The translations under genes and the position numbers were made by a program. The notes beneath the pieces are model-generated. The model ran no database searches. It was not told the origin of the DNA and saw only the letters and a program-made list of their open reading frames with translations. From Planctomycetota bacterium (GTDB taxonomy: Bacteria > Planctomycetota > B15-G4), in contig JBBQUR010000012.1 of the NCBI GenBank assembly GCA_038212275.1, positions 93,115-157,114 of the forward strand: 64,000 bases of DNA, read 5' to 3'. Shown here in pieces: positions 14,773-59,945 of the stretch (position 1 is the first letter of the stretch; the number at the start of each line of letters is the position of its first letter).

Positions 14773-14937
14773 ATGTCCACGCCGCGCCTGATCCAGCTTG
14801 TCGGTCTGCTCATCGTCACCGCGGTGATGATCGTGTCGTACCTCGTGTCGAACATGCTGCTGCAGTTCGGCGGGCTTGCTGCGGGCGCGCTGGTCTTCCT
14901 CATCGGGCGTGGCATGGAGAGTCGCGGCGGCAAGTGA
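14773..14937 (+). CDS. small two-helix membrane protein (54 aa)
   Basis: ATG..TGA ORF below the 60-aa track cut-off: MSTPRLIQLVGLLIVTAVMIVSYLVSNMLLQFGGLAAGALVFLIGRGMESRGGK; two hydrophobic helices, high GC3. Confidence 0.4.
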   Translation: MSTPRLIQLVGLLIVTAVMIVSYLVSNMLLQFGGLAAGALVFLIGRGMESRGGK

Positions 14938-16012: not shown

Positions 16013-17386
16013 ATGGCGGAGCTGGCCGCGGCGCTGCCCGCCGAGCGCTGGCCCTTGCTCCTCGACAGCGGGCCGCGCCGCACCGATCTCGCACAATGGC
16101 ACCTGCTGCTCTTCGATCCGGTCGCGCGTTTTCAGCACCGCGCAGTTCCCGGCGAGAACGGCTTGCAGGCATTGCAGGTGGCACTGGAGCGTTGCTGGCC
16201 GGGTGTGCGCCGCGCCGCCGGAGCTGCGGCGGGCCGTGCAGGCACGGCGGCCCTCGGCAGCGTTCCGGCCTTCACGGGCGGCGCGGCAGGCTGGTTCGGC
16301 TACGACCTTGGTCGAGAACTGGAGCGGGTGCCGGCGCGCTGCCCTCCCGACGCCGACGTCCCGGATCTCTGCGTCGGTCTCTACCCGTTCGCGCTGGCCG
16401 AAGACGTGGGCAGCGGCCGCCGGCTGATCGTGGGGCGCGGCAGCAGCGAGGAGGCGCATCGCTTCCTTGCGGAGGTGACGGCGCTCGTTGCCGCCGCGAC
16501 GCCATTGGTGCCGCTTTTGCCGGCTCCGGCCGCCAGCGGCCTGTCGCCCGAGACCAGCCTGGACCGGCTCGCCTACATGGCCGCCGTGGAGGCTGCGCGC
16601 GAGCACATCCTCGACGGCGACATTTACCAGGTGAACCTGTGCCAGCGGCTGCAGTTCCCATTCGATGGAGACTCCGCGGCGCTGCAACTCGCGTGGCGGA
16701 ACCGGTTTCCGGCGCCGTTCGGCGCGCTCATGAGGATTCCGGGTCTGGCGATCGTGTCGAGTTCGCCGGAGTTGTTCCTGCGCAAGCGGGGCAGTCGCGT
16801 CGAGAGCAGGCCGATCAAGGGCACGGCCCCGCGCTCCGCCGATCCGCGAGTCGACGCCGGGCTGCGGGAGTCGCTGGAGGCCTCCGCGAAGGAGCGCGCC
16901 GAACTGGCCATGATCGTCGATATCGTGCGCAACGACCTCGGTCGCACGGCGGAGATCGGAAGCGTCGCGGTGGAGGGCGGTTTCCGCACGGATTCGTGGA
17001 GCGACGTCCATCATCGCGTCGCGACGGTGAGCGCGCGCGTGCCGGACGAGGTCACGGCGCTGGAGGTGATGGCGACCGCGTTTCCGCCGGCCTCGGTGAC
17101 CGGCGCGCCGAAGCTGGCCGCGCAGGCCGTCATCGAGGAACTCGAGCCGCGACGCCGGCACGTGTACACGGGGGCGATTGGCTGGATCGGTGCCGATGGC
17201 GACATGGACCTCTCCGTCGCCATCCGGATCGCCACGCTCACGGAGGGGCGCCTGCTGGCCAGCTTTGGCGGGGGCATCACGCTGGCATCCGACCCCGCCG
17301 CGGAGTACGAGGAGACACTTCACAAGGCGCGCGCGCTGTGCGATGTGCTCGGCGCGCGCGGCCCATTCACCGGGACCTCCGCATGA
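16013..17386 (+). CDS. pabB: aminodeoxychorismate synthase component I (chorismate-binding enzyme)
   Basis: SRVESRPIKGTAPR ... IVDIVRNDLGR ... YTGAIGWIGADGDMDLSVAIRIATL ... GGGITLASDPAAEYEETLHKA; stop overlaps pabC start (ATGA); alternative upstream ATG at 15857. Confidence 0.85.
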   Translation: MAELAAALPAERWPLLLDSGPRRTDLAQWHLLLFDPVARFQHRAVPGENGLQALQVALERCWPGVRRAAGAAAGRAGTAALGSVPAFTGGAAGWFGYDLGRELERVPARCPPDADVPDLCVGLYPFALAEDVGSGRRLIVGRGSSEEAHRFLAEVTALVAAATPLVPLLPAPAASGLSPETSLDRLAYMAAVEAAREHILDGDIYQVNLCQRLQFPFDGDSAALQLAWRNRFPAPFGALMRIPGLAIVSSSPELFLRKRGSRVESRPIKGTAPRSADPRVDAGLRESLEASAKERAELAMIVDIVRNDLGRTAEIGSVAVEGGFRTDSWSDVHHRVATVSARVPDEVTALEVMATAFPPASVTGAPKLAAQAVIEELEPRRRHVYTGAIGWIGADGDMDLSVAIRIATLTEGRLLASFGGGITLASDPAAEYEETLHKARALCDVLGARGPFTGTSA

Positions 17387-18252
17387 TTTTCGCTCTGGGC
17401 TGGATCGACGGCGACATCAGGCCTGTCGAAGAGCTGGCCGTGTCGGCGCTCGATCGGACGGTGCTGTACGGCCTGGGTGCCTTCGAGACCGTGCGCCTGC
17501 ACGGCGGGCACCCGTTTCTCTTCGACCGGCACCTGGCGCGGTTGCGCAGTTCGCTCGCCGCGGTGGGGCTTCCGGCACCGCCGGCGCTGGAGCTGCTTCC
17601 GCGCGGCGTGGTCGAGCTGGCAGCACGCGCCGACGCGCCGAGTGCGCTGTGCCGCGTGACCGTGACGGCCGGTGCCAGCGTCTCCGAAGCCCACATCCGC
17701 GGCACCGGGATGAGAGTCCTCGTGCAGTTGCGCTCCGTGCCGCCGGTGGCCATCGGTCCGGTGCGCGTGGGAGTGGCGCCGTTCGCGCACGACAGCCGCT
17801 CGCCGCTCGCCGGCGTGAAGTCCACCAGCTACCTGAGCCACTACCTGCAGCGCGAGGCGGCGGAGGCGGACGGCCGCCTCGACGACCTCATGCTGGACAC
17901 GGACGGAAACGTGACGGAAGGCACGGTGTCGAATGCCTTCGGCGTGCGGCGCGGTGAACTCATCACGTCGCCGGTCAGCACGAAGATCCTGCCGGGCGTG
18001 ACGCGCGGCGCAGTGCTGGAGCTGGCGAGGGAGCTTCAGCTGACCATTCACGAGAGCCCGCTGCGCCTGGCCGAACTGGCCGAGCTGGACGAGTTCTTCC
18101 TGACCGGCGCAGGCAAGTGCCTGGTGGGGGTCGACGAGCTCGCCGGGCACCGCCTGCCCGTCGAACGGCCGGTGACGGCGGGCTTGAGGACCGCCCTCAT
18201 CCGGCGCATCGCCACCTTCTGTGGGGTCGCCCCCGAGAGCATTCACATCTGA
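17383..18252 (+). CDS. pabC: aminodeoxychorismate lyase (class IV PLP aminotransferase fold)
   Basis: 289-aa class-IV fold protein (LYGLGAFETVRLHGGHPFLFDRHLARL...) translationally coupled to pabB. Confidence 0.72.
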   Translation: MIFALGWIDGDIRPVEELAVSALDRTVLYGLGAFETVRLHGGHPFLFDRHLARLRSSLAAVGLPAPPALELLPRGVVELAARADAPSALCRVTVTAGASVSEAHIRGTGMRVLVQLRSVPPVAIGPVRVGVAPFAHDSRSPLAGVKSTSYLSHYLQREAAEADGRLDDLMLDTDGNVTEGTVSNAFGVRRGELITSPVSTKILPGVTRGAVLELARELQLTIHESPLRLAELAELDEFFLTGAGKCLVGVDELAGHRLPVERPVTAGLRTALIRRIATFCGVAPESIHI

Positions 18253-18341
18253 GTGCCGGTTCGGTGCGCCACTCCGGCGGGGATGCGTTGCGTCTTCCCG
18301 CAGACCGGACTTACGATGCTCGGGATTCCGAAGAGATCGGC

Positions 18342-19265
18342 ATGACCATGCGAAGATCAACCCTGCACCGTCATCGCGCGGGCCTGCTGTTCCTGGCGCT
18401 CGTGCTGCCAGGTGCGCCTGCCTTTGCGCAGGACGACGGTCGCCCCCCCGAAGGCACGGACTCGGCCCAGTCCGCCGAGGCGGCTGCCCAGGCTGCCGAT
18501 GCCGCTGCCATGGGTGCCGTCGAGATCATGGACGCGGCACTGAACGACCGCGACCCGGCAAAGATCAAGCCGGTGTTCACCACGCTCGACGAGCAGTGGG
18601 CGAACCTGTCGCCGAAGACCATCAAGCGCGTGAACAAGTCGATCAGCGGGATGTTCGCGAAGCTCAAGCCGCGTGAATCGCGCGACATCGACACGCTGGG
18701 CGAGGACGCGAAGAACGGCCGCTTCGACCCGGAAGAAGGCAGCCGGAGACTTGCCACCGACACGCAGAAGCAGGACGTGCTCGACTGCTATCACTCGGCG
18801 ATCGGCCTGCTGTACGACAAGCCGGACGGCCCCGCTGTGCTGCTGCCAGTTCTCAAGTTGCAGCACGTGAAGGTCTGGCCCGACGTGCAGGTGCTGGTGC
18901 TCGAAGGCCTCGGCTATCGCGGAGAGGGGGCGCTCGAGAAGGAATTCGAAGGCTATCTGCGCCACGAGAATCCGGCGGTCGCGTCCGCCGCCGCGAGCGC
19001 GATGGGACATCTGCAGGACCAGCCGATGGATGTTCGTCGCCGCGCCGTGACCGCGCTGGTGGATGCGTTCAGCGCCGCACAGAAGGCTTCCGACAAGGAG
19101 GCCTCGAAGGTCGGCGAGGACGACGAGCGCCCCGCGCGTCGCTATTACTCCAGCGTGATGCTCGCGTTCCGGGAAGCGCTCACATCCCTGACGCGCCAGT
19201 CGTTCGACAAGCCCCCCGAATGGCGCGAGTGGCTCGACGCTCACGGCAAGGATGCCTCCTGGTGA
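18342..19265 (+). CDS. secreted protein with HEAT/PBS-lyase-like repeats
   Basis: MTMRRSTLHRHRAGLLFLALVLPGAPAFA signal peptide (aa76 of ORF 18117..19265); alpha-helical repeat-like ENPAVASAAASAMG segments. Confidence 0.55.
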   Translation: MTMRRSTLHRHRAGLLFLALVLPGAPAFAQDDGRPPEGTDSAQSAEAAAQAADAAAMGAVEIMDAALNDRDPAKIKPVFTTLDEQWANLSPKTIKRVNKSISGMFAKLKPRESRDIDTLGEDAKNGRFDPEEGSRRLATDTQKQDVLDCYHSAIGLLYDKPDGPAVLLPVLKLQHVKVWPDVQVLVLEGLGYRGEGALEKEFEGYLRHENPAVASAAASAMGHLQDQPMDVRRRAVTALVDAFSAAQKASDKEASKVGEDDERPARRYYSSVMLAFREALTSLTRQSFDKPPEWREWLDAHGKDASW

Positions 19266-19861
19266 GTGTCTGGGGTCTGATCCGCACCAGGCTGATCAAC
19301 CCGCTCGTCCGGGCGCAGGGCACGCCCAAATCGATTGCGCGCGGAACCGCGCTCGGCACGTGGCTCACGCTCACGCCGACCGTCGGCATCCAGATGACCA
19401 TCGCCGCGTTCATCGGCATTCCGTGGGGAGCGAACATGCCGATCGCGATCGCCATCATCTGGCTCTCCAACCCCTTCACGATCATTCCGCTCTACTACAG
19501 CTACTACTGGTTCGGGACAGTGCTCCTTCCCGGCCCGGCGCGCTCCTACGCCGACGTGACGGACGCGGTGAGAGTGCGCATCGAGGCCGTCACGCAGCAC
19601 GGCGAGGGCGTCCTGACGGCATTGCGGACGCTGGGGGCGGACATCGGCACCCCGATGGTCGTGGGCTCTCTGGTCATCGCCACGGGGATTGCCGTTCCGG
19701 CGTACTTCATCACGCTGCACTGGGCGCAACGGCGGCAGGCGCGAAGGCAGCGGGAACACGAGGCGGCGGGCGCCGTCCAATCGCCTGTCGTCCCGCCGAC
19801 GGGTTTCGGTGGGCCACTTCCGCCCGCCGTGCCCGGCACCCCGAAGGCCAGCAGCCCGTGA
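19262..19861 (+). CDS. DUF2062-family membrane protein
   Basis: GTG at 19262 overlaps upstream TGA (GTGA); RGTALGTWLTLTPTVGIQMTIAAFIGIPWGANMPIAIAIIWLSNPFTIIPLYY matches DUF2062 topology/motifs. Confidence 0.65.
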   Translation: MSVWGLIRTRLINPLVRAQGTPKSIARGTALGTWLTLTPTVGIQMTIAAFIGIPWGANMPIAIAIIWLSNPFTIIPLYYSYYWFGTVLLPGPARSYADVTDAVRVRIEAVTQHGEGVLTALRTLGADIGTPMVVGSLVIATGIAVPAYFITLHWAQRRQARRQREHEAAGAVQSPVVPPTGFGGPLPPAVPGTPKASSP

Positions 19862-21453
19862 CCGACAGCGACGACCTCCTCACCCTGCAAGTCGACGGCG
19901 ACGACGGCGACGACGGCCGCCAGGACGCAGGCGCACCGAGCGCGCGTCGCGTGGAGGCCAGCGATACCTCTGGCGCCACGGGAGGCCGGTCGACAGCGCG
20001 AAGCCCGGTCGGACTGAGCGGTTCCGAGCTGGTGACGCTGTCCTCGGAGGCGCGCCTTGCGACGGCGTTGCTGCTGCAGGCACAGGCGCTGGAAGGCATG
20101 CGGCAGGCGCATTCCGACCTGCTCTCCAGACTGGATGCAGGCGGCGGCGCGCGGCGGTCCGAGGAACTGCACTCGGCTCTGCGCGAAGTGCAGCAGGTGC
20201 AGCAGCAGACGCTCGGACAGCTCGCGCGGGCGCGCCATCGTGCAAGCCAACGCACGGCGATGTTCGTCGCGTTGCTCGTGCTCGGGGCCCTGGCTGCGGG
20301 GTGGCTCGTGCAATCCTCGCGTGCCGATGTGAGCCGCGCCGTTGCCGACGCCCGGGCCGAACTGGTTGGAAAAGCGGCTGCAGACCGGGCCGATCTCGAG
20401 ACTTCCCTCAAGGCAGCCATGACCGCGACCGCAAGCCAGCAGGACGCGATGCTTGAAGAGCTCGTTGCGGGCCTGCGCGGCAACGAGGCGCAGCTGCGTG
20501 ATCGTCTGGATCGCACGAGTACCGAGCGCGACGAGGCACGCGCGCAGTTGGCCGGCAAGCATCAGGAGGTCGCCGGGCTTCAGTCCGAACTAGTCGCTGA
20601 AACACAGGGCCGCGACTCGATGGAACTGGAGCTGCACAAGACGCGCGACGAACGCAATCGACAGATCGGCGAGGCGTCACGGCTGCGCGAGCAGCTCATC
20701 GATCGGGACCGGCAGCTCGAAGAGTTGACCAACACGATCAGCAAGGTGCGAACGGACATGGAGGCCCGGGCAGCAGCCCCGGACGGCCGGATCGTGAACT
20801 CGGCCATTCACCCGGAATCGTTCGCGGGGCGGTTGACGACGGCGCTCCGAGGCAGCGGCGCCAAGGAAGCGACGGTCCTCGAAGCAGGTCCGGTGGTCGA
20901 CGGCGCGCTCACCGGAGTGCTCGTGATGCTTGGAGGCTCCGACAGCGTCTCAGGGCGCGTGGTGCGCGCAGAGACGGCCCGGCTGCTTGTGGAGCGCGGC
21001 ATGGCGCTGCTGCGGCTCGAGTCCGTGCAGGAGCCGGACCGCGAGACTCCCACCGCGAGCCTGGACGTCGCATTGCCCGAACTTGATCCGGCGGCATGGC
21101 GAGCGCTCGGCCTGGAGGCGCCGGGCGACTTCGTGCCGATTTCGAAGGTGTCCGAAGCGCTTGGAGCGCTGTTGTCGCCACAGGGATACGTCGTCGTCCG
21201 GCTCGAGAGCTTCGATGGTCTCACGCTGGGTGGACTTGAACTGCGCCAGGAGGACACCCGAGGGACCTGCTTGCGCACCTTGATGGCAGCGACAGGAGAG
21301 GTCCGACCGGTCGGGCCGGAACTGGCACTGGAAGGCGGCTCGATTCTCGTGGGCGACGATGCCCGCCCGTTTTTTCAGGGGCAATGCCGAGTGCCGCTGC
21401 CCGGTGCCGACTATGGCGCCTGGCTGGCGGCCACGAGGAGCGACTCGAAGTGA
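19858..21453 (+). CDS. membrane-anchored coiled-coil protein with C-terminal globular domain
   Basis: GTG at 19858 overlaps DUF2062 TGA (GTGA); N-terminal DGDDGDDG, one TM helix MFVALLVLGALAAGWLV, ~200 aa heptad-rich region (LQSELVAETQGRDSMELELHKTRDERNRQIGEASRLREQLIDRDRQLEELTNTISKVRTDMEA). Confidence 0.55.
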   Translation: MTDSDDLLTLQVDGDDGDDGRQDAGAPSARRVEASDTSGATGGRSTARSPVGLSGSELVTLSSEARLATALLLQAQALEGMRQAHSDLLSRLDAGGGARRSEELHSALREVQQVQQQTLGQLARARHRASQRTAMFVALLVLGALAAGWLVQSSRADVSRAVADARAELVGKAAADRADLETSLKAAMTATASQQDAMLEELVAGLRGNEAQLRDRLDRTSTERDEARAQLAGKHQEVAGLQSELVAETQGRDSMELELHKTRDERNRQIGEASRLREQLIDRDRQLEELTNTISKVRTDMEARAAAPDGRIVNSAIHPESFAGRLTTALRGSGAKEATVLEAGPVVDGALTGVLVMLGGSDSVSGRVVRAETARLLVERGMALLRLESVQEPDRETPTASLDVALPELDPAAWRALGLEAPGDFVPISKVSEALGALLSPQGYVVVRLESFDGLTLGGLELRQEDTRGTCLRTLMAATGEVRPVGPELALEGGSILVGDDARPFFQGQCRVPLPGADYGAWLAATRSDSK

Positions 21454-22334
21454 GCGGCGCCGAAGCCCTGGAGCAGTTTCTGAGGGCGAGCCGCGAACTC
21501 GTCGAGCCCGCGATCTCCGCATGGTTGCCTTCCGAGGCACAGGCCGGTCCGCTGGCGGCGGCCATGCGCCACATCGCTTTCGCCGGTGGCAAGCGGCTCC
21601 GGCCCGCGCTGGCGCTGCTCGGATGCCGGCACGCCGGGGGGCAGCCCGAGCAGGCGCTCGGCGCTGCGGTCGCCGTCGAGCTGATTCACGCCTATTCGCT
21701 CGTGCACGACGATCTGCCGTGCATGGACGATGCCACGCTCCGCCGCGGCAAGCCCTGCGTCCACATCGTCTGGGGTGACGGTCTCGCCGTCCTGGCGGGG
21801 GATGGGCTGCTGACGCTCGCCTTCGAGGTGCTCGCGCGACACACGCCACCGGGCTGCCCCGTGGGTGCCATGGTGGTGGCGCTCGCTGACGCCGCAGGCT
21901 GGTCCGGGATGGTTGGCGGGCAGGTCGAGGACCTGGCGGCCGAGGGACAGGTTCCCGACCTCGATCGCGTGCGCCGCATTCACGCCGGCAAGACGGCCGC
22001 CATGATGGCGGTGTCGCTGCAACTCGGCGCCCTGGCGGGGGGCGCCACCGCCCGGGATGCTGCTGCACTCGCCCGGGCAGGGCGCGATTTCGGCCTGGCC
22101 TTCCAGATCGTCGACGATCTTCTGGACGTCCAGGGCACCACCGCCGAACTGGGCAAGCAGGCGGGCGCAGACGCAGAACGGGCAAAGATGACATGGCCGG
22201 CGGTGGCTGGCGTGGAACAGAGCTGGCGCGACGCGCGGGATCTCGTGTCCGGAGCGCTGGACGGCATCCCGCCAGGCGTTTGCCGCCCGCTGCTCGAGGC
22301 ACTCGGGGCGACCATCGTGCCGCGGCGATCCTGA
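21450..22334 (+). CDS. ispA: (2E,6E)-farnesyl/geranyl diphosphate synthase (polyprenyl synthetase)
   Basis: LIHAYSLVHDDLPCMDDATLRRGKPCVH first Asp-rich motif; GTG at 21450 overlaps upstream TGA; precedes dxs as in the classical ispA-dxs arrangement. Confidence 0.9.
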   Translation: MSGAEALEQFLRASRELVEPAISAWLPSEAQAGPLAAAMRHIAFAGGKRLRPALALLGCRHAGGQPEQALGAAVAVELIHAYSLVHDDLPCMDDATLRRGKPCVHIVWGDGLAVLAGDGLLTLAFEVLARHTPPGCPVGAMVVALADAAGWSGMVGGQVEDLAAEGQVPDLDRVRRIHAGKTAAMMAVSLQLGALAGGATARDAAALARAGRDFGLAFQIVDDLLDVQGTTAELGKQAGADAERAKMTWPAVAGVEQSWRDARDLVSGALDGIPPGVCRPLLEALGATIVPRRS

Positions 22335-22392
22335 AACTCGTCGGTCGCGGCCGCAGGACTCGAGGCGGGCAGGTCTGACCCGGTTTATGTAG

Positions 22393-22407
22393 GGTGTGTC
22401 ACACACC
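22393..22407. promoter_or_regulatory. near-perfect 15-bp palindrome GGTGTGTcACACACC about 30 bp upstream of dxs start
   Basis: 7-bp arms perfectly complementary around a single central base; located in 103-bp ispA-dxs spacer. Confidence 0.5.
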
Positions 22408-22437
22408 GTTTCGCGACTGGAGCCCAGGTCCGCCCGC

Positions 22438-24351
22438 ATGTCCATCTTCGAACATGTCGACTATCCGGAGGACTTGCGCCGGCTCTCCGTGGATGACCTT
22501 CCGGTCCTCGCGGCGGACATGCGCGCGGAACTCATCGACGCGATCAGCCAGACCGGGGGGCATCTGGGCTCCGGGCTTGGAGTGCTCGAGCTGACGATTG
22601 CGCTCCACTACGTGCACGACTTCCGGAAGGACCGCCTGGTCTTCGATGTGGGACACCAGTGCTACCCGCACAAGCTGCTCACGGGACGCAAGCACCTCAT
22701 TCGTACCATGCGCCAGGCCGACGGATTGTGCGGCTTCCCGCATCCGGCCGAGAGCGAGTTCGATCTCTTTCACACGGGCCACGCGGGAACATCCATTTCG
22801 CTGGGGCTTGGGCTTGCGGCTGCGGACAAGCTGACGGGACACGGCGACCGCCGCACGGTTGTCGTGATCGGCGATGCGGGCTACGGCGCAGGTGTCGCGT
22901 TCGAAGCGATGAACCACGCGAGTGAGGCGGGCGTCGACCTGCTCGTGATCCTGAATGACAATGAGATGTCCATCAGCCCGACGGTCGGAGCGATGTCGCG
23001 CTACTTCACGCGCGTGCGCACCGGGCCGCTCATCACCGGCGCGAAAAAGGAACTGGCGGAGCTCATCCGGCATATTCCGGTCATCGGCGAGAAAGTGGAT
23101 CGCTCCATTCGCGAGAGTCTTGCGGTGATGAAGTCCGTGCTCGTGCCGGGGCATGTGTTCGAGGAGTTCGGTTTCAGCTATTTCGGCCCGATGGATGGCC
23201 ATGATCTCCCGCGCCTCGTGCATACGTTGCAGGATCTCAAGCAGCGACCCGGCCTCAGTTTCCTGCATCTCGTGACCAGGAAGGGCGCCGGTTGCGAAAT
23301 GGCGGCCGGCGATCCTCAGCGTCTGCACGGCGTGAAGGCGAAAGCCAAGCCGCCCGCCTCCGGGACGGCTGGGCAGGCTGCTGGCGCCGCCAGGATTGCG
23401 CGTCCGACGTACACGGACGTGTTCGCAGAGTGCGTGACGCGTCACGCGATGGACGATGCACGCATCGTCGGCGTCACGGCGGCCATGCCGGACGGCACCG
23501 GGCTCAAGCAGCTGGCCGAGGCGCTTCCCGGTCGATGCTTCGATGTCGGCATCTGCGAGCAGCACGCCGTGGCCTTTGGTGGTGGCCTCGCCAAGGGGAC
23601 CTTGCTGCCCGTCGTGGCCATCTACTCCACGTTCCTCCAGCGGGGTTATGACGAGCTCTTTCAGGAGCTGCTCATTCAGAACGCGCCCGTCGTGATCGCG
23701 CTGGATCGAGCCGGATTGGTTGAAGACGGAGCCACGCACCACGGCCTCTTCGATATTGCCTACCTCCGTACGCTCCCGAACGTGGTGCTCATGGCGCCGG
23801 CCAACGCCGAGGAACTCCAGGCGATGCTCGGCGCCGCCCTTTCGATGGGTGTTCCGGTTGCGGTTCGCTACCCGCGTGACAGTGCGCCGGCCGCCGACGG
23901 GCCCGTGGCACCCGTGGAACTCGGTCGTGCCGTCCGCCTGCGCAAGGGCTCCGACGTCGTGCTCGCCGCGTACGGCACCATGGTGCCTCTCGCAATGTCC
24001 GCGGCAAGGCATCTGGCAGACGCCGGCATCCAGGCGACCGTGATCAATGCACGCTTTGCCAAGCCCGTTGACGCAGCGATGATCAGTGCTTCACTCGAGC
24101 ACGCCAGGATGCTTGTCACGCTGGAGGAGCACGCGGTGTGCGGCGGGTTCGGATCTGCCGTCCTGGAAGCTCTGGCTGCACGCGACGGAATTCTCCCCCC
24201 TACGCTCATGATCGGGGTCCCTGACAGGTTCATCGAGCATGGCTCGCGGGACAGCTTGCTGGCGAAGCTCGGCTTCACGCCACAGGCTATCGCGGACAGG
24301 GTCCTGCAAGCCTTGCGCGTGGGCGCTCTTCAGCCCGTCAGCGGCAGCTAG
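22438..24351 (+). CDS. dxs: 1-deoxy-D-xylulose-5-phosphate synthase
   Basis: MSIFEHVDYPEDLRRLSVDDLPVLAADMRAELIDAISQTGGHLGSGLGVLELTIALHYV... thiamine-diphosphate and transketolase-like blocks throughout. Confidence 0.95.
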   Translation: MSIFEHVDYPEDLRRLSVDDLPVLAADMRAELIDAISQTGGHLGSGLGVLELTIALHYVHDFRKDRLVFDVGHQCYPHKLLTGRKHLIRTMRQADGLCGFPHPAESEFDLFHTGHAGTSISLGLGLAAADKLTGHGDRRTVVVIGDAGYGAGVAFEAMNHASEAGVDLLVILNDNEMSISPTVGAMSRYFTRVRTGPLITGAKKELAELIRHIPVIGEKVDRSIRESLAVMKSVLVPGHVFEEFGFSYFGPMDGHDLPRLVHTLQDLKQRPGLSFLHLVTRKGAGCEMAAGDPQRLHGVKAKAKPPASGTAGQAAGAARIARPTYTDVFAECVTRHAMDDARIVGVTAAMPDGTGLKQLAEALPGRCFDVGICEQHAVAFGGGLAKGTLLPVVAIYSTFLQRGYDELFQELLIQNAPVVIALDRAGLVEDGATHHGLFDIAYLRTLPNVVLMAPANAEELQAMLGAALSMGVPVAVRYPRDSAPAADGPVAPVELGRAVRLRKGSDVVLAAYGTMVPLAMSAARHLADAGIQATVINARFAKPVDAAMISASLEHARMLVTLEEHAVCGGFGSAVLEALAARDGILPPTLMIGVPDRFIEHGSRDSLLAKLGFTPQAIADRVLQALRVGALQPVSGS

Positions 24352-24586: not shown

Positions 24587-27500
24587 ATGTTCAAGCTGAT
24601 TTCAGTTTTGATGGCCGCTCTGCTCTGGATCTCTCCGGGGCTCCAGGCCCAGACGCCGGGCGCATATCCGCACCTCGTCCTGACGGACGGCCACGGAACA
24701 TCGATTCCGGGGCCGGGTGGCCCCTTCGACAACTCGGGGCTGTTTCCGGCCTTCTCGGGCTTGTCCTTCAAGGCTCAAGTGACCTACCAGTCGGCCGGGC
24801 AGCCGAACAGCAATGTTCTGTGGGGCCTCCTCGTGTCGGTGGCCAAGACTCCCCTGCCGCTCAATGTCACGCCTCCCTCCCTCCTGACGATGCCCCCCTT
24901 CATCCTGATGCTGCCGGTACCGCCCAACCTGAGCGGAGGGGGATTCGGCGAGATGCCGCTCTACGTGCCGGCGGGCGTGTATTCGGCGGAGACATACGTG
25001 CAGGGCATGGTGTACGACGTGACTTCGGCGCCGACGATGCGCCTCACGAACGGGCTCAAGGTCACGGTCGAGGTGCCCCAGTTCTCGGTGAACCTCGTGT
25101 TCACCCGCAGCAAGCCTGCCGGTGGCGATGGGCAACTCAAGGACGTGGGCGTCATCGACATCGATGCCGACACGCTGAACACGCTCAAGCCGATCGGCAC
25201 GAAGGCGCCACCCGAGGCTCTGCCGGGCCCTCCGCCGCTGGCAGATGACTACCGATTTCTCGCGATCCTTCCCAACGCCGGCGATGAACCAGTCAACCCG
25301 CTGGCGCGACCGATCACCCGCATCCAGGGAAGCGTCGCGTTCGATGCGACGACAATTCCCGTGAAGGACACTCGGTACTTTCCGACGACGGGCCGGATCC
25401 TGATCGCATTCTCGGCGGGCGATCCCGCACAGAACAACCTGTGGAAGTCCAAGGCGACCACGACCCTTGCGCCCAATGCCGAAGTCGTCAGTTACAACGG
25501 CACGACCCCCACGAGTTTCCTCAATTGCAAGCGCGCCCAGCTGGGTTCGAGGGGTTCCTCCGTTGCCGGAGGATTCTTCCACGTGAACGACGAGATGGTG
25601 GTGGGGTTCTTCACCATGGCGACCACGGTGGATGCCCGGTTGCGGACTCGCGTGGGACTTGACGCCGACAATCGTGACACTCCGCACGTTGTCGTCCCGC
25701 AATTCACCTTCGATGCAGGGGGCGACCTCGGAACGGTCACGCGCGATCTGGACATCTATCGCTACGAAACCCTCGCAAACAAGATCCAGGGTTTCATGGT
25801 GCTCGACCGCATCACGGGCTTGTGGCGCGCGATACCGGGCACGGCGAAGAATGAATTGGAAGGGCGGTGGGACCCGATGGTGGCCATCGCGCCGGATGGG
25901 CGCAGCATGATCGCGCACCTGGAAATTCCAGGCGGCCTGTTTGGCTGGGACAACAACCCGGATGGAATCGTGGCCATCCGCCTGGATGGGCTGAACTGGC
26001 CTGCCAGCGGCAGCGAGGCCTGGATGATTCCCTACCAGACGGATCCGGATCCCGTCAATTCCATCGTGAGCGATGTGCGCTCGCGTCGTGTCTGGATGCC
26101 TGCTGCGGCGATCATCGGAGCCAATCCGGACAACTACGTCGCGTACGTCGGACTTGCTCACAAGTGGAGGCTCAATCCCAACAGTCCGGGCAGTGGCAAC
26201 CTGCCTGACTTCGGATACGAGGCGGAGTACGTCGCTGAAGAGGTGATCGTCCGCGACATGATCGAGTGTCCGCTCACACCGCCCGCTTCGACAAAATCGG
26301 TGCCATCGATGCCGAGGCCTTATCTCACCGGCTCGTTCGGCAACAACGGACAGGGAGGCAAGATCATTCGCTTCGATCCTGACGTGCAGCGATTGGTCAA
26401 CAACACGCAGCTCCTGCTCACCGCAGGGGCCGCTGGGAGCAAGGAGGATGTGTTCGTCATTCGAAGCGTCTCGGTGGGGCAGGACGGGGCACCACACCAC
26501 TCGCTCGTGAATCTCTCCGGATTCACGCAAGCTCAGGAAAGCAACCTGCAGACGGATGTCCGGGCGTTCAGATCCGGCGGGCACGGCAACGGGCGGAAAG
26601 TCGCCGTGTCGCCTGACAATTCGCGTGTTGCGTGGGCCTTCAAGGACCGATTCAACACTGGCGACGAACGCCGCGATTGGCTCAACGTGGCGTCCACCAG
26701 CGGCTCGAGCTACAGCAAGATCAAACACGTCTACAAGAACGCCAACGAGCAGTTCAAGATTGCCGGGCCCCTTACGAATGACCGTGCGATCTGCGGCTTG
26801 CGCTTCATCGACAACACGCGTCTCATCTTCATGATGGGTCTGGACAGGTACGACGATCCCCTCGCCGTGAACTCCAGCAATGCTCCGCAGATGGACCTGT
26901 TTCTCTACGACACCACGACCGATGTCATCACCAATCTGACCAAGACCGGAAACGCGGCGGGCGACGGATTTTCGGCCTTGGGGCAGATGACTCCGGCCGG
27001 ATACTTCGCTGCTCCAGGAGGGGGTTTTGCCTACGTGATCCGGGCGGGAGGCATTGGTTCGGTTCAGTTCCCGAGCAGCCCCTCGCTATTCCTGACGCCA
27101 GGCACGGCTGTCACGAACATCATCGGCATCAACATGGCCACGCTGGACGTGTTCGCCGTGACCGGGACCGAGATCAGCGGATCTGCGCTCGTCCCGAATC
27201 TGACGCTCGCTTCGGGTGACTTGGCTGCCCCGTCGGAGACTGTTGCTTCGATGAACTTCGTCTCGGCAACTGGCGTGCAGGACGGGATCATCTATTTCAG
27301 CGCTCATCGGGCGGGAGGCAATGGATCGGATGACGTGTTCGCGCTTGATCGCGACAGTCCGTTCGTCACGTTCGGGGCAACCAGTGCGACCATGTCCGGC
27401 GTGCACGTCACCAACATCGCGCCCGACCCGTATGGCGGTCGCGTTGCCTTCGCCCGCACGGCAACAAGCGATGCATTCGGCCCGACGCAGCATCCGTACG

Positions 27501-27826
27501 TGGTGGATCTCGACAACTTCCTGTTCGAGCGTGATCTGCTGCCGAAGTATGTCTCCGGAGGCAATCCTCTCGGGCGCGTGATGGATGGCAGTTTTCATTT
27601 CATCGCGCCGACTGGAAGCGCTGGCGACGCATTCGTGTTTGCATTCGGTCTTATCGCACTGAACGGGGGAATTGCCGGTCTGGCCACGCCGGCCTACTAC
27701 CCCCTCGGCGCCGTGTCGGACCTGCTCGCCGAGCCGATCCCCGTGATCATTCCGCTGGTCGACACGTTTCTTCTCGGCCAGGACTTCCGGTTTTACATCG
27801 CCGCAGCAGGGCCGTCGAAGAACTGA
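24587..27826 (+). CDS. large secreted protein with PD40/WD40-like beta-propeller-type repeats
   Basis: Signal peptide MFKLISVLMAALLWISPGLQAQ (aa117 of ORF 24239..27826); repeated xAxxPDGxxxA segments (VAIAPDGRSMIA, AVSPDNSRVAWAF); visibly lower GC and more A/T-ending codons than flanking genes. Confidence 0.65.
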   Translation: MFKLISVLMAALLWISPGLQAQTPGAYPHLVLTDGHGTSIPGPGGPFDNSGLFPAFSGLSFKAQVTYQSAGQPNSNVLWGLLVSVAKTPLPLNVTPPSLLTMPPFILMLPVPPNLSGGGFGEMPLYVPAGVYSAETYVQGMVYDVTSAPTMRLTNGLKVTVEVPQFSVNLVFTRSKPAGGDGQLKDVGVIDIDADTLNTLKPIGTKAPPEALPGPPPLADDYRFLAILPNAGDEPVNPLARPITRIQGSVAFDATTIPVKDTRYFPTTGRILIAFSAGDPAQNNLWKSKATTTLAPNAEVVSYNGTTPTSFLNCKRAQLGSRGSSVAGGFFHVNDEMVVGFFTMATTVDARLRTRVGLDADNRDTPHVVVPQFTFDAGGDLGTVTRDLDIYRYETLANKIQGFMVLDRITGLWRAIPGTAKNELEGRWDPMVAIAPDGRSMIAHLEIPGGLFGWDNNPDGIVAIRLDGLNWPASGSEAWMIPYQTDPDPVNSIVSDVRSRRVWMPAAAIIGANPDNYVAYVGLAHKWRLNPNSPGSGNLPDFGYEAEYVAEEVIVRDMIECPLTPPASTKSVPSMPRPYLTGSFGNNGQGGKIIRFDPDVQRLVNNTQLLLTAGAAGSKEDVFVIRSVSVGQDGAPHHSLVNLSGFTQAQESNLQTDVRAFRSGGHGNGRKVAVSPDNSRVAWAFKDRFNTGDERRDWLNVASTSGSSYSKIKHVYKNANEQFKIAGPLTNDRAICGLRFIDNTRLIFMMGLDRYDDPLAVNSSNAPQMDLFLYDTTTDVITNLTKTGNAAGDGFSALGQMTPAGYFAAPGGGFAYVIRAGGIGSVQFPSSPSLFLTPGTAVTNIIGINMATLDVFAVTGTEISGSALVPNLTLASGDLAAPSETVASMNFVSATGVQDGIIYFSAHRAGGNGSDDVFALDRDSPFVTFGATSATMSGVHVTNIAPDPYGGRVAFARTATSDAFGPTQHPYVVDLDNFLFERDLLPKYVSGGNPLGRVMDGSFHFIAPTGSAGDAFVFAFGLIALNGGIAGLATPAYYPLGAVSDLLAEPIPVIIPLVDTFLLGQDFRFYIAAAGPSKN

Positions 27827-27841
27827 CGTGGCGGGGACCTG

Positions 27842-28609
27842 TTGAAGCGTCTCGATCCGTCAACGCTGGGCAAGGCGGACGTGCTGCTCGTTGCTCCCCA
27901 TCAGGATGACGAAGCACTCGGATGCGGCGGAACGGCTCACCTGCTGGTCCGCGCAGGTGCGCGAGTGCAGATCGTCATCGCCGCAAGTGGCGAAGGCGGA
28001 ATTGTCGGCGGCGTGTCGGCGGCGCAGCGTGAGGATGAGTCTCGTCGATGCTGCATGGTCCTTGGAACATTGCCACCGCTCTTCCTGCGCCAGCCGTCCG
28101 CAAGCTTGCGCGCAGATCCGTGGCAGGCGGGGAAGCTGCTGGAAGCGCTTGTCGGTCGCGAGTGTTGCGACGTGATGCTGGTACCTTCGCCGCTGGAGCG
28201 CCACGAGACTCATCGGGCTACGCTCGTCGCTGCGGCGTGTGCCGGTGTCGCCCGGCGCGACGGCCGCTGGTACGGGTACGGTGTCTGGGATGCCATACCG
28301 GCGTGGCCCGGCGTCATGGAAGTCGATATCACCTCGGCTCGAAGCGCCAAGACACAGGCCATTGCTGCGCATCACAGTCAGGTCTCCGGACGTGCGTTGG
28401 CAGCCGCCATGGCGGCTCGCGACATGGAACAGGCAGTCTTCGCCCGGATCACGGGGATCGAGGAACGCAGGGCCGTGGAGCGGCTCATGGAACTGCCGCT
28501 GCTGGCCGGTGGAGCAGCGCGCGACGTTCACGAGGCTCGGGCTCGCATCGCAGCCGGCCTCTCGGCCAATCTGGGTCTCTGGGCCGAATCGCTCTGGCCA
28601 TCCGCGTGA
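27842..28609 (+). CDS. PIG-L/LmbE-family N-acetylglucosaminyl deacetylase
   Basis: LLVAPHQDDEALGCGGT matches the LmbE-type motif (reference form xHPDDExxGxGGT, as I recall it); apparent TTG start at 27842 (start uncertain). Confidence 0.7.
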   Translation: MKRLDPSTLGKADVLLVAPHQDDEALGCGGTAHLLVRAGARVQIVIAASGEGGIVGGVSAAQREDESRRCCMVLGTLPPLFLRQPSASLRADPWQAGKLLEALVGRECCDVMLVPSPLERHETHRATLVAAACAGVARRDGRWYGYGVWDAIPAWPGVMEVDITSARSAKTQAIAAHHSQVSGRALAAAMAARDMEQAVFARITGIEERRAVERLMELPLLAGGAARDVHEARARIAAGLSANLGLWAESLWPSA

Positions 28610-28634: not shown

Positions 28635-29621
28635 TCAGCCGGATTCACCCGCCCGAGCCTGCTGATTGCGCTGTCCCGTGGCCCAGACCGCAAGCAGCAC
28701 GATCATCAACATGCCGACGAGAACGGGCGGGGAAAGCAGCGAAGCGAACAGACCTGTCCAGCCGACGGCCGCATCGGCTGCGCCGAGGGAATAGGCCGGC
28801 TGCGCATAAGATGCCAGGTCTGCGACTCGATCGATGAGCAGGGCGATGCGTCCGAGCACCGTGAATCCGAACATGCTGCCGAACGTGAGCATGAGCACGA
28901 CGATGCCAAGCCGCGACATGCCACCGAGCAACCTGTTGCGCCGGTAAGTGAAAATGAAGTGTGACAGCACGCAGATCAGGCCGACGAGGAAGACAAGGTT
29001 GGAGAGCAGCGAGAAGCCGATGCTGTTCTCGAATCGCACGCCATCGGTCCATGGAACCGCAGACGGCGATATCAGCGGGACCATGGTCTCCTTGATCTGG
29101 ATCACGAGCTTGCTCTGCGTCTCACCGGTCATCTTGATGGCGGCGTAGATCCCCACCATTGCGGCCAGCGGCCAGCGCGGAGCCCATGAGTCTCTGGAAA
29201 ACAGCCGTACGAGCAGCATCACCGAGAAGAGCAGCGCCACGCAGCGCAACGCGATGGCCAGGCCGGGCTGTACCTGAAAGCCTCCGAGGTCCACAAGCTG
29301 CAGGCCCGTGACGGCATCGGCGCCGGCGAGGAGCTGTTCGTTGGCCGCGAGCTTGTCGTGCGCCTGAATGATGTACTCGCGTACCGGGCCGAGGATCCCC
29401 GTCTCGTAATTCTCGAGCGTGTACCAGGCTGCACCGACGCCGACGAACAGGTGTTCAGCCAGCTTGTAAAACGGGTTGTCGCGATACAGGAAGCTGAACA
29501 CAGCAAGTGTGAGAAAGCACACGATCCAACCGCCGAGGATGTCCGGAGTGGCAGCAGTATCCAGTGAAAACCACGCTGGCGCGGTGGCTCCAGCGGAAGT
29601 CTGAAGCAGCAATGGAATCAC
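28635..29621 (-). CDS. polytopic membrane protein (cluster gene A), unknown function
   Basis: GTG start (aa27 of ORF 28635..29699) overlaps stop of gene B as GTGA; multiple hydrophobic helices. Confidence 0.55.
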   Translation of the reverse strand: MIPLLLQTSAGATAPAWFSLDTAATPDILGGWIVCFLTLAVFSFLYRDNPFYKLAEHLFVGVGAAWYTLENYETGILGPVREYIIQAHDKLAANEQLLAGADAVTGLQLVDLGGFQVQPGLAIALRCVALLFSVMLLVRLFSRDSWAPRWPLAAMVGIYAAIKMTGETQSKLVIQIKETMVPLISPSAVPWTDGVRFENSIGFSLLSNLVFLVGLICVLSHFIFTYRRNRLLGGMSRLGIVVLMLTFGSMFGFTVLGRIALLIDRVADLASYAQPAYSLGAADAAVGWTGLFASLLSPPVLVGMLMIVLLAVWATGQRNQQARAGESG

Positions 29622-30463
29622 CGGGTGGCCCTCCGCCTTCCGAGGAAGTACGCGACGTTTCCGAAGGCGATCAGTCCGATGATCAGCAGGTGTGACCATG
29701 ACTGGACCAGCATGCGCCGCTGATCCTCATCACGTTCTTCGTGCACGGCTTCAGTGGCTTCTCCGACGAGTTGCAGATACTGGGTGGCGCCGGTGAATGC
29801 ACCGAGGAATCCCTTGAGCTGGTTCGGGTAGTACGCAAAGAGCGCCGTCGTTTGAACCGCGGTCGTGCCACAGATCACCGGCACCTGGTACCGACCTCCG
29901 ACCTGTGCAATCCATTCGAGGATGCCGGGATATCCGGCAGAGGCCGAGACGAGCAGCGAGATGCCGCGAAAGCTGTCGCTCACATCCGCCAGGAGGGGAA
30001 TGTCCCGCAATGGTGAATGGTTGCGATCATCGGTGGAGTACGTGGACTTGAGCGACTGTCCGATGAGCCCCATGGCCACATCGTCGCCGGGCGTGTATCC
30101 GAGCTCCACCCAGTCGACTCCGTAGACCTTTCCGTACTGGGGTGCTATCTCGCTGAAGTACTTCTGAGTGAACGGCGGCGCTGCCGGCCAGGTTGCCACG
30201 TTGATGACACGCAGGTTGTGGCGCAGGAGATGGTGAATCGTCGCGATGTACATCGGCTCGATTTCGGCAGCGCTGGCCGGATCAAAGTCGGCGGAGAGCA
30301 TCACGATCGAGCCCTCGGGAAGGCTCTCGATTTCGTCGAAGTAGCTCTGGACATACTCGCTGACCGGGATCGTCTCGGTCTCACCGAGCGCGTACATCAC
30401 CACCACGACCAGACCCATGGCCAGGAAGATCCAGCGCCTGTCGATATCGAGCGGACTGGCCAT
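29618..30463 (-). CDS. membrane protein with N- and C-terminal TM helices and large intervening domain (cluster gene B)
   Basis: MASPLDIDRRWIFLAMGLVVVVMYAL ... HLLIIGLIAFGNVAYFLG; 3-nt gap to gene C stop. Confidence 0.55.
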   Translation of the reverse strand: MASPLDIDRRWIFLAMGLVVVVMYALGETETIPVSEYVQSYFDEIESLPEGSIVMLSADFDPASAAEIEPMYIATIHHLLRHNLRVINVATWPAAPPFTQKYFSEIAPQYGKVYGVDWVELGYTPGDDVAMGLIGQSLKSTYSTDDRNHSPLRDIPLLADVSDSFRGISLLVSASAGYPGILEWIAQVGGRYQVPVICGTTAVQTTALFAYYPNQLKGFLGAFTGATQYLQLVGEATEAVHEERDEDQRRMLVQSWSHLLIIGLIAFGNVAYFLGRRRATR

Positions 30464-31303: not shown

Positions 31304-32203
31304 TCAGCCGAACAGTCGTTGGTAGAGCGCGAACAACTCCGCAGCCGTGCCGGGGTGGCTGCTGTCGCTGATGGTGGCCGCGTCCATTGCCGCGACGGTG
31401 GCGAGCCACACGCCGACGATGAAGAGTGCAGCGGCGAGCACCTTCGTGATGTCGCTCGCTCGAATCGTGCCTACGAGTCCCGGCTCGCGCGTCAGGTACG
31501 CGGTGACGGCGAAGTACTCCTCTCCCATGATCGTGTAGTCGCACGCGGCGACGAAGAACGGCAGCTGCTCGTACCGCGCCGTGCCTGCCAGCTGGATCGC
31601 GCCCGTGCCGTAGCCCGTCTCGGCGAGGATGAGCGACTCCGCGAAGAACATGCCCATCATCACGTTGGCCGCCGGCTTTTCGCGATTCATGATGCCCGCG
31701 ATGCCGGCGCAATACGCGAACTGCTCGTCGGAGAGGTAGCGCACGTTGTCCGGAATGAACGCGTCAGGGCGCCCTGCGTCGGCGCAGCCCTGCTTGACCG
31801 CCTCTTCCGCGAACGCGAGCACGACCGAGTTCTTGACCGGCACGATGATGGGTGTCCCGAACTCCGCCGCCTTGCGTGCGACGTGCCTCAGAATCATCAT
31901 CGAATAGATCGTCTGGATCTCCTTGATCTCGTCCGTGCCCGGCACGTACAGCACCGGCCTGCCCATCTCGGTGGCGCGACCGATGGCCTCGTCCAGCGCG
32001 TCGAGTCCGTTGATGCGCCGGATCTCGATCTTCTCGCCGCGGCGCGCGCGCCGTTGCTGGAAGAACATGATCGCGCCGAACGCCAGGATGGCCACGAGCG
32101 TCGGCAGCTTGTTGGTGGCGACCCAGGGGCCGAGGTCAAGCGCCCGCTCGTTGAGCCAGCGAGTGATTGCTTCGACCCATGTCGCGCCGGAAGAAACATC
32201 CAT
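31304..32203 (-). CDS. membrane-anchored protein with cytoplasmic domain (cluster gene D)
   Basis: One N-terminal and one C-terminal hydrophobic helix; start codon shares 1 nt with gene E stop. Confidence 0.55.
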   Translation of the reverse strand: MDVSSGATWVEAITRWLNERALDLGPWVATNKLPTLVAILAFGAIMFFQQRRARRGEKIEIRRINGLDALDEAIGRATEMGRPVLYVPGTDEIKEIQTIYSMMILRHVARKAAEFGTPIIVPVKNSVVLAFAEEAVKQGCADAGRPDAFIPDNVRYLSDEQFAYCAGIAGIMNREKPAANVMMGMFFAESLILAETGYGTGAIQLAGTARYEQLPFFVAACDYTIMGEEYFAVTAYLTREPGLVGTIRASDITKVLAAALFIVGVWLATVAAMDAATISDSSHPGTAAELFALYQRLFG

Positions 32204-59861: not shown

Positions 59862-59945
59862 TGGTGCGAGGAGGGGGAGTCGAACCCCCACGGATTGCTC
59901 CACCGGATCCTAAGTCCGGCGCGTCTGCCGTTCCGCCACCCTCGC
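59862..59945 (-). tRNA. tRNA-Leu (anticodon UAG), class II, CCA encoded
   Basis: Reverse complement GCGAGGGUGGCGGAACGGCAGACGCGCCGGACUUAGGAUCCGG...GGGGGUUCGACUCCCCCUCCUCGCACCA; 7-bp acceptor stem pairs, anticodon loop CUUAGGA, long variable arm, T-loop UUCGACU; near-identical layout to E. coli tRNA-Leu. Confidence 0.8.

Follow-up and report, generated by a model that had tools for sequence, protein, structure and literature searches.

Genes and features of the locus

Five co-directional genes, here called A, B, C, ispA and dxs, lie downstream of a pabB–pabC-like pair in the window, by which we mean the whole 64-kb stretch of Planctomycetota DNA that was analyzed (Table 1). A sequence-only reading had described the five as encoding a HEAT-like protein, a DUF2062 membrane protein, a transmembrane coiled-coil protein, IspA and Dxs, and both the identities and the order are upheld here.

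Table 1. Genes, protein regions and conserved spacer elements, numbered from the first nucleotide of the window
Feature	Position	Strand	Description
pabB	16013..17386	+	aminodeoxychorismate synthase component I; upstream context
pabC-like gene	17383..18252	+	class IV aminotransferase (Aminotran_4, 1.2e-49); ATGA overlap with pabB stop
Promoter-like element upstream of A	18288..18317	+	TTGCGT, 18 nt, TACGAT
Gene A	18342..19265	+	exported HEAT-like alpha-solenoid protein, 307 aa; signal peptide ends AFA/QD
Gene B	19262..19861	+	DUF2062 polytopic inner-membrane protein, 199 aa; GTG start overlaps A stop
Gene C	19858..21453	+	bitopic membrane protein, 531 aa
C, N-terminal part			disordered acidic N-terminus, then conserved cytoplasmic helix
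C, TM segment	aa 133-151 (nt 20254-20310)	+	single hydrophobic segment
C, periplasmic helical stalk	aa 177-303 (nt 20386-20766)	+	long helix, ~125 residues
C, tandem beta-domain	aa 322-526 (nt 20821-21435)	+	
ispA	21450..22334	+	farnesyl diphosphate synthase type; GTG start overlaps C stop
Spacer motif GGTTTATGTAGGGTGTG	22382..22398	+	between ispA and dxs
dxs	22438..24351	+	DXP synthase; 103 nt after ispA, no overlap

The translation of ispA matches the polyprenyl_synt family (6e-57) and contains HAYSLVHDDLPCMDD, the first Asp-rich motif; its score against the NCBIfam FPPsyn model NF045485, 275.5 bits, is borderline against the cutoff of 275. By these family criteria the product is a predicted farnesyl diphosphate synthase. 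The assignment of dxs rests on 697.3 bits against TIGR00204 (cutoff 465.95) and on a DXP_synthase_N match of 2.7e-102, and that of pabB, whose start was set from orthologue lengths of 453-467 aa, on Pfam Chorismate_bind (3.1e-79) and the NCBIfam PabB models.

The match of A to Pfam HEAT_2 (PF13646; E 7.3e-5, 23.4 bits) falls under the gathering cutoff of 27.7. The orthologue in lineage L021 scores above that cutoff, at 50.9 bits, several orthologues carry a precomputed PF13646 match, and the A-family profile matches PDB entries for alphaRep, a set of designed HEAT-like proteins (2.9e-4). Nine homologues of A were found, all from Planctomycetota where the source is named, and in some orthologues a lipobox replaces the signal peptide.

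B belongs clearly to DUF2062 (PF09835; E 6.5e-32, 111 bits with the cutoff at 27.4; the match spans profile positions 9-146 of 147), and two stretches of the protein, aa 35-77 and 132-155, are hydrophobic. To our knowledge, DUF2062 has no established function. Our literature search on the family turned up nothing but Brucella BspA, mentioned as a type IV effector, a PDB sequence search gave no meaningful match, and the DUF2062 loci of Planctomycetia (L086 and L067) and of L010, a 4-Mb genome, have unrelated neighbors that offer no functional clue.

C has a cytoplasmic N-terminus, a periplasmic stalk and, at the tip of the stalk, a beta-domain made of two helix-plus-beta-meander repeats. Its family comprises about 114 clusters among 1.8 billion representatives. 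Searches of NCBIfam and Pfam at permissive E-values, with C and its distant relatives, returned coiled-coil noise only, and a PDB sequence and profile search with the C-terminal domain gave no relevant match. C defines a new protein family, and its periplasmic domain appears to resemble lipid-transfer beta-jellyrolls.

Two short elements in the spacers are conserved. The first, GCGTTGCG...TACGATG, is kept in the otherwise divergent pabC–A spacers of the window, L005, L001, L003 and L004 (alignment A3), and by this conservation it may serve as a promoter for A. The second, TGTAGG(G/C)TG, is conserved in the window, L005, L003 and L004, although the rest of the ispA–dxs spacer varies (alignment A4); judged by conservation again, GGTTTATGTAGGGTGTG could serve dxs as an internal promoter or a -10-like element. 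A sigma-70 consensus scan found no promoter in the A–ispA region and placed both conserved elements under its threshold. Rfam searches over the 64-kb window gave no match in the spacers, the GGTTTATGTAGGGTGTG motif included. Across the whole window Rfam matched a single tRNA, at 59865-59945, and nothing else.

Overlapping junctions and gene order in relatives

GTGA tetranucleotides, in which the stop codon of one gene overlaps the start codon of the next, join A to B (19262-19265), B to C (19858-19861) and C to ispA (21450-21453), exactly at the three positions given in the sequence-only reading. The overlaps end there, as a spacer (22335-22437) separates ispA from dxs. The overlaps are not due to chance: orthologous junctions repeat 4-nt (or 7-nt) overlaps although the proteins are only 37-79% identical. 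At the A/B junction A always ends in Trp (alignment A2), hence the conserved TGGTGA. The gene order and overlaps of the window are shared by L001, L003, L004, L005, L006, L008 and L013, whereas L015 has a 20-nt gap; overall, the C/ispA overlap is kept in eight of nine lineages of the clade.

A promoter or terminator ahead of ispA would have separated it from C, and there is no room for either. The sole terminator-like site (21349-21376) lies inside C and does not stand out from shuffled sequence, the scan having returned 3 sites versus 3.1 expected. None of the six orthologues examined shares its T6 run; they have TTCTTC or TTCTAT instead, and the site was rejected as a terminator. The four genes thus share a strand, are joined by stop/start overlaps and have no intervening terminator or promoter, as in a translationally coupled operon. 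Because both overlaps and gene order are conserved in nine lineages, all from one uncultured clade of Planctomycetota, A–B–C–ispA is, as far as genome comparison can tell, a real, translationally coupled unit.

By itself, an overlap of stop and start codons says little about shared function. Four-nucleotide overlaps are the commonest class of overlap, and the upstream pabB/pabC pair likewise overlaps, by an ATGA at 17383-17386, so that overlapping architecture is the local norm and not a peculiarity of the module.

Related loci were sought with a DUF2062 alignment, and 90 loci were scanned with HMMs for A and C. Joint occurrence of A, C and DUF2062 is confined to ~21 Planctomycetota lineages, all of which have the order A, B, (X), C, with X present in some lineages only; 55 other DUF2062 loci carry neither A nor C. 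By this distribution A–B–C is a stable, Planctomycetota-restricted cell-envelope module. Homologues of all three genes lie near ispA, with the module within ~5 kb upstream of ispA–dxs, in 16 of the 21 lineages for which the available sequence suffices, and two relatives, one of them L024, have no ispA within ~5 kb of the module. Neither of the two conditions under which the sequence-only reading was to fail, a promoter or terminator ahead of ispA or homologues never found near it, is thus borne out. The whole ~17-kb neighborhood is collinear in all close relatives.

The genes between C and ispA, however, vary. In L017, L021 and L027, A–B–X–C is followed by xseA–xseB–ispA–dxs, with a clear xseA (Exonuc_VII_L, 1e-99) and an xseB open reading frame of 76-79 aa; xseB and ispA are joined by a GTGA overlap in L021 and by TTGA in L017. 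L016, L023, L030 and L032 carry rny (RNase Y) between C and ispA, accompanied in L016 by ymdB, and in L026 C is followed in series by rny, ymdB and xseA. None of xseA, xseB and rny occurs in the 64-kb window. The suggestion that the module has taken the slot of xseB therefore does not hold: relatives keep xseA–xseB or rny(–ymdB) between C and ispA, and in the window clade the intervening genes appear to have been lost.

Origin of the contact between C and ispA

We consider it likely, with a probability of roughly 0.65, that A–B–C is a coupled module, which came to touch ispA when genes were lost from a conserved string of housekeeping genes. The ancestral string would have read pabB–pabC, A–B–(X)–C, rny–ymdB–xseA–xseB–ispA–dxs, and in the window clade X, rny, ymdB and xseAB would have disappeared from the locus, bringing C against ispA. 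Parsimony and outgroup comparison favor loss of the intervening genes over their insertion. Lacking an initiation region of its own, ispA would always be coupled to the preceding open reading frame, xseB in relatives and C in the window clade. Since ispA overlaps whichever gene precedes it, the coupling is a property of its position at the end of the operon. A, B and C would be made from one transcript, with the overlaps favoring coupled, roughly proportional synthesis of the three as a putative complex, and dxs is probably served by a further, separate promoter. The Lpt-like fold predicted for the C-terminal domain of C makes a periplasm-spanning structural or lipid-handling function the most likely role for the module. 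The persistence of the C–ispA overlap in nearly all lineages of the clade could also reflect selection for co-expression.

Two functional interpretations of the module compete with this reading. The first, which was the proposal of the sequence-only reading, holds that co-translation with ispA keeps the amount of an envelope machine in step with the availability of lipids derived from farnesyl diphosphate (such as undecaprenyl phosphate or hopanoids), with the beta-domain of C binding or moving such a lipid. Retention of the C/ispA overlap and proximity of the module to ispA–dxs in most informative lineages both speak for it, as does the likeness of the C-terminal domain of C to the lipid-carrying Lpt beta-jellyrolls. 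Nevertheless, unrelated housekeeping genes (xseA–xseB, rny, ymdB) separate C from ispA in at least eight lineages, ispA is not near the module in L024, and in relatives ispA overlaps xseB instead. Moreover, pabB–pabC is equally constant on the other side of the module, yet a link to folate would not be inferred from it; in a neighborhood that is collinear throughout, adjacency is a poor guide to function. Thus, the tight, co-directional and overlapped unit stands, whereas the functional tie to isoprenoid or undecaprenyl supply, given the variable intervening genes, seems unlikely.

The second interpretation assigns the module no isoprenoid role. It takes C to be a highly diverged analogue of LptC/LptA (or TolA), an inner-membrane-anchored periplasmic bridge with the DUF2062 and HEAT proteins as accessories, making up for what Planctomycetes lack in their reduced Lpt or Tol-Pal sets. 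Those sets are reported to be "largely reduced" (PMC8871954), which counts in its favor. The bitopic, N-in topology of C agrees with that of LptC, two of eight C-family members give a faint LptF_LptG Pfam match (E 0.027), and Lpt proteins dominate the Foldseek list obtained with C. The Foldseek E-values, however, are all >0.01, with TM-scores of <=0.31, and no sequence match to any Lpt family is significant, the window protein giving none at all to LptC (PF06835), OstA/LptA (PF03968) or LptF_LptG (PF03739). Further, lptB, lptF and lptG are not nearby, no lpt gene adjoins the module in any locus examined, and most of the sampled Planctomycetota loci lack the C family. On balance this analogy is doubtful.

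A bolder reading goes further. A, B, (X) and C might together form an undescribed, Planctomycetota-specific trans-periplasmic apparatus, in which an Lpt-like, lipid-binding beta-domain on a ~19 nm stalk supplies an LptC/LptA- or TolA-type bridge that sequence searches have missed in the phylum. The cargo of the bridge might be LPS or else an isoprenoid lipid. Although this proposal is improbable, such a bridge, if real, would give the coupling to ispA an adaptive reason to have been retained. Because the Planctomycete envelope is unusual and its Lpt and Tol-Pal sets are reduced, the triad is a reasonable, if unproven, candidate for missing envelope machinery.

Finally, that the overlaps are incidental, with true starts elsewhere and separately initiated neighbors, is very improbable: the window does have other in-frame starts (ATG at -42 and GTG at -33 upstream of B, ATG at -66 upstream of ispA), but these are not conserved, the overlapping GTG is the sole available start codon for C in L003, L005 and L006 and the only plausible one for B and ispA in L006, orthologue N-termini line up at the overlap positions (for B, at its GTG, alignment A6), and the Pfam and NCBIfam matches of ispA begin at residue 13 of the GTG-initiated protein.

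Comparison with known systems

Under the preferred reading of gene loss, the C–ispA arrangement is mostly ordinary, a lineage-specific variant of the widespread xseB–ispA–dxs order. Clustering of these three genes and polarity of xseB insertions on ispA have been documented elsewhere (PMC6979010, PMC12041025). In the clusters of Proteobacteria and Firmicutes, ispA is followed by dxs, lacks an initiation region of its own and depends on the upstream gene. L017, L021 and L027 match this cluster exactly, down to the overlapped xseB/ispA junctions of the first two. The window clade differs in having no xseA or xseB at this position and in having the membrane protein C as the upstream partner of ispA.

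A by-product of the comparison is the conserved HEAT/DUF2062/coiled-coil triad, which gives DUF2062, a family that includes Brucella BspA, two fixed partners in one phylum. Outside the A–B–C clade, in contrast, DUF2062 genes stand alone among unrelated neighbors.

For C, the fold that the C-terminal domain appears most to resemble is that of the Lpt beta-jellyrolls, found in LptC, LptA, the periplasmic domains of LptF/LptG and the N-terminal domain of LptD. C departs from these in sequence membership, in its poor structural scores and in its genomic surroundings, and also in build, with two repeats and a helical stalk of ~125 residues interposed between membrane and domain. TolA-type proteins combine a membrane anchor, a long periplasmic helix and a small C-terminal domain. 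The layout of C is similar, with an N-in anchor, a helical stalk able to cross much of the periplasm and a globular tip.

Overlapping starts and putative promoters

The window, which the source names of homologues place in an uncultured Planctomycetota genome, has a G+C content of ~70% and carries seven + strand genes between 16.0 and 24.4 kb, including the module of A (exported HEAT-like protein), B (DUF2062 membrane protein), and C (bitopic coiled-coil protein). GTGA tetranucleotides lie at 19262, 19858 and 21450, exactly as the sequence-only reading had it. C homologues are scarce (8 in a 5.8-billion-sequence index; 114 cluster representatives by profile search), and we compared the overlaps on their contigs and on contigs carrying distant homologues of A and B. 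Among these related loci (L numbers), close relatives keep the order pabB-pabC-A-B-C-ispA-dxs with 4-nt overlaps at the junctions, save for four: the C/ispA junction is readable as a 4-nt or 7-nt overlap in L003, is a 7-nt overlap (GTGGTAA) in L004 and a 20-nt gap in L015, and in L001 B is cleanly gone, leaving 13 nt from the stop of A (TGGTGA) to the GTGAC at which C starts.

Three observations together make the GTG starts of the overlapped genes well supported. First, an upstream in-frame stop leaves the overlapping GTG as the sole start codon for C in L003, L005, and L006, in a test reaching at least 30 nt into C (60 nt in L003 and L005); in L006 the argument is also valid for B and ispA. 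Second, orthologue N-termini align at these positions. Third, the C-terminal residue of A is always Trp, so that TGGTGA is kept. To judge from these sequences, the overlaps are under selection. We also found no promoter or terminator separating C from ispA. A hairpin with a T-run inside C was considered as a terminator and rejected, being neither conserved nor above shuffle expectation.

Transcription probably starts ahead of A and ahead of dxs. The pabC-A spacer is divergent save for GCGTTGCG and, after ~18 nt, TACGATG, a plausible -35/-10 pair; a promoter there would drive A-B-C-ispA, and dxs would have an extra promoter of its own. The ispA-dxs spacer holds a conserved TGTAGG(G/C)TG core, whose full 17-mer form, GGTTTATGTAGGGTGTG, is identical in L005, L003 and L004 sharing just the core. 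This motif, for which Rfam had no match, may serve dxs as an internal promoter or act as a leader element. The sole Rfam match in the window is a tRNA gene.

Features of the window and of related loci
Feature	Locus	Position	Strand	Remarks
54-aa ORF	window	14773-14937	+	between TPR gene and xerC
pabB	window	ends 17386	+	stop overlaps pabC start
pabC	window	17383-18252	+	overlaps pabB by ATGA at 17383
Putative -35/-10 pair	window	18288-18317		pabC-A spacer
A	window	18342-19265	+	weak HEAT_2 match; signal peptide
B	window	19262-19861	+	DUF2062, 6.5e-32
C	window	19858-21453	+	no family in Pfam or NCBIfam
Hairpin and T-run	window	21349-21376		inside C; rejected
ispA	window	21450-22334	+	polyprenyl synthase; barely above NCBIfam FPP-synthase cutoff (275.5 vs 275)
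TGTAGG(G/C)TG motif	window	22382-22398	+	ispA-dxs spacer
dxs	window	22438-24351	+	identity unambiguous; 103-nt spacer after ispA
1074-aa protein	window	24602-27826	+	no Pfam domain
PIG-L family deacetylase	window	27842-28609	+	
354-aa polytopic membrane protein	window	28638-29699	-	no family
DUF6754 protein	window	31307-32515	-	E 1e-104
tRNA	window	59865-59945	-	
X, separate gene	L021	7513-8220		
X, separate gene	L027	5340-6041		
X, separate gene	L024	7504-8208		
X, separate gene	L026	7535-8263		
X fused to DUF2062	L030	6965-8398		
X fused to DUF2062	L032	7001-8233		
X fused to DUF2062	L023	24-1346		
DUF2062 gene lost	L001	7985-8003		also L002

History of the C-ispA contact

A DUF2062 alignment search, at one genome per species, gave 80 loci; together with ten fetched earlier these made 90, which were queried with the window proteins and with HMMs of the A family and of the C-terminal part of C. 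Across these, DUF2062 was joined by A and C in ~21 Planctomycetota lineages and nowhere else, and the order was invariably A, B, (X), C. Neither gene occurs at the other 55 DUF2062 loci, where DUF2062 is flanked by unrelated genes. X, which matches no family, is a ~235-aa protein whose N-terminal segment is of membrane or lipobox-like type. The window's clade lacks X, and three lineages carry it as a C-terminal fusion to DUF2062. One lineage (GCA_035489175.1) has cleanly lost the DUF2062 gene with A and C kept, so that DUF2062 is dispensable for keeping them.

What stands downstream of C varies. ispA follows directly in the window and eight relatives. In L017, L021, and L027, C is followed by xseA, a 76-79 aa xseB ORF, ispA, and dxs, with ispA overlapping xseB by TTGA in L017 and by GTGA in L021; L020 has xseA-xseB and then the contig end. 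RNase Y, ispA, and dxs follow in L016 (plus ymdB), L023, L030, and L032. Before the locus ends, L026 has rny, ymdB, and xseA in series, and L022 has rny. No ispA was found within ~5 kb after C in L024, and L025 offers just ~1 kb beyond C. xseA, xseB, and rny are all missing from the 64-kb window.

Proteobacteria and Firmicutes have the order xseB-ispA-dxs (PMC6979010, PMC12041025), as do L017, L021, and L027, whereas in the window's clade C directly precedes ispA. Given this order elsewhere and the variable genes after C, the simplest history by parsimony is an ancestral string of module, rny, ymdB, xseA, xseB, ispA, and dxs, from which separate lineages would have shed separate pieces, the window's clade losing everything between C and ispA. 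On this sequence comparison, ispA is a passenger, invariably coupled to the gene ahead of it. The idea that the module took the xseB slot misread gene loss, since xseA-xseB or rny lie between C and ispA in relatives.

Co-expression of the module with ispA is very likely in the window's clade, and that part of the earlier interpretation stands. A functional tie to isoprenoid supply is not supported, in view of the variable genes after C and of the surroundings: in close relatives the whole ~17-kb neighbourhood is collinear (CarboxypepD_reg protein, TPR protein, 54-aa protein, xerC, pabBC, module, ispA, dxs, 1074-aa protein, PIG-L), and adjacency therefore says little about function.

Within this neighbourhood, the conserved 54-aa ORF encodes two hydrophobic segments (MSPPRLIQLLGLLIV...QFGGLGVGA...), has no Pfam match on record, and occupies the corresponding position in L001, L003, L004, L005, L006, and L008 (57-85% identical to the window). 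The 1074-aa/PIG-L pair is also found after dxs in L003, L004, L005, and L008; in L001 and L006 a long unannotated gene follows dxs, and the sequence ends ahead of the PIG-L position. G+C drops from ~0.72 to ~0.62 across 24-32 kb, and the 354-aa and DUF6754 proteins are encoded beyond PIG-L.

C protein and a possible envelope complex

We go no further than to propose that A, B, and C work together in an envelope complex, in which a helical stalk would let C extend a beta-domain across the periplasm. The HEAT_2 match of A is stronger in its orthologues, some of which have a lipobox instead of the signal peptide. Five basic residues just ahead of the membrane segment of C predict a cytoplasmic N-terminus. 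Structure models built on eight sequences predict that full-length C begins with an acidic, disordered N-terminus, followed by a conserved helix (aa 63-93), the membrane helix, a single long helix (aa 177-303), and a beta-rich domain at the C-terminus. Modelled on its own from the family alignment, the beta-rich domain is predicted with confidence (pLDDT 91.4, pTM 0.85) as two helix-plus-five-strand units. These show a weak in-register alignment to each other (hhalign E 0.017), and both end with LPxxDxxxW; C of some distant lineages has one unit only. The beta-domain may bind lipid.

Literature and database searches turned up no earlier description of the A-B-C triad or of the C family, which we regard as the findings most worth noting here. 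Sequence methods found nothing for C beyond a faint LptF_LptG match in 2 of 8 family members. In Foldseek searches with the predicted C-terminal domain, Lpt families came first with weak scores (E >= 0.012, TM <= 0.31), and we treat this likeness to Lpt proteins as a lead, not a classification. The Lpt and Tol-Pal sets of Planctomycetes have been reported to be reduced (PMC8871954), leaving room for an analogue such as the proposed complex.
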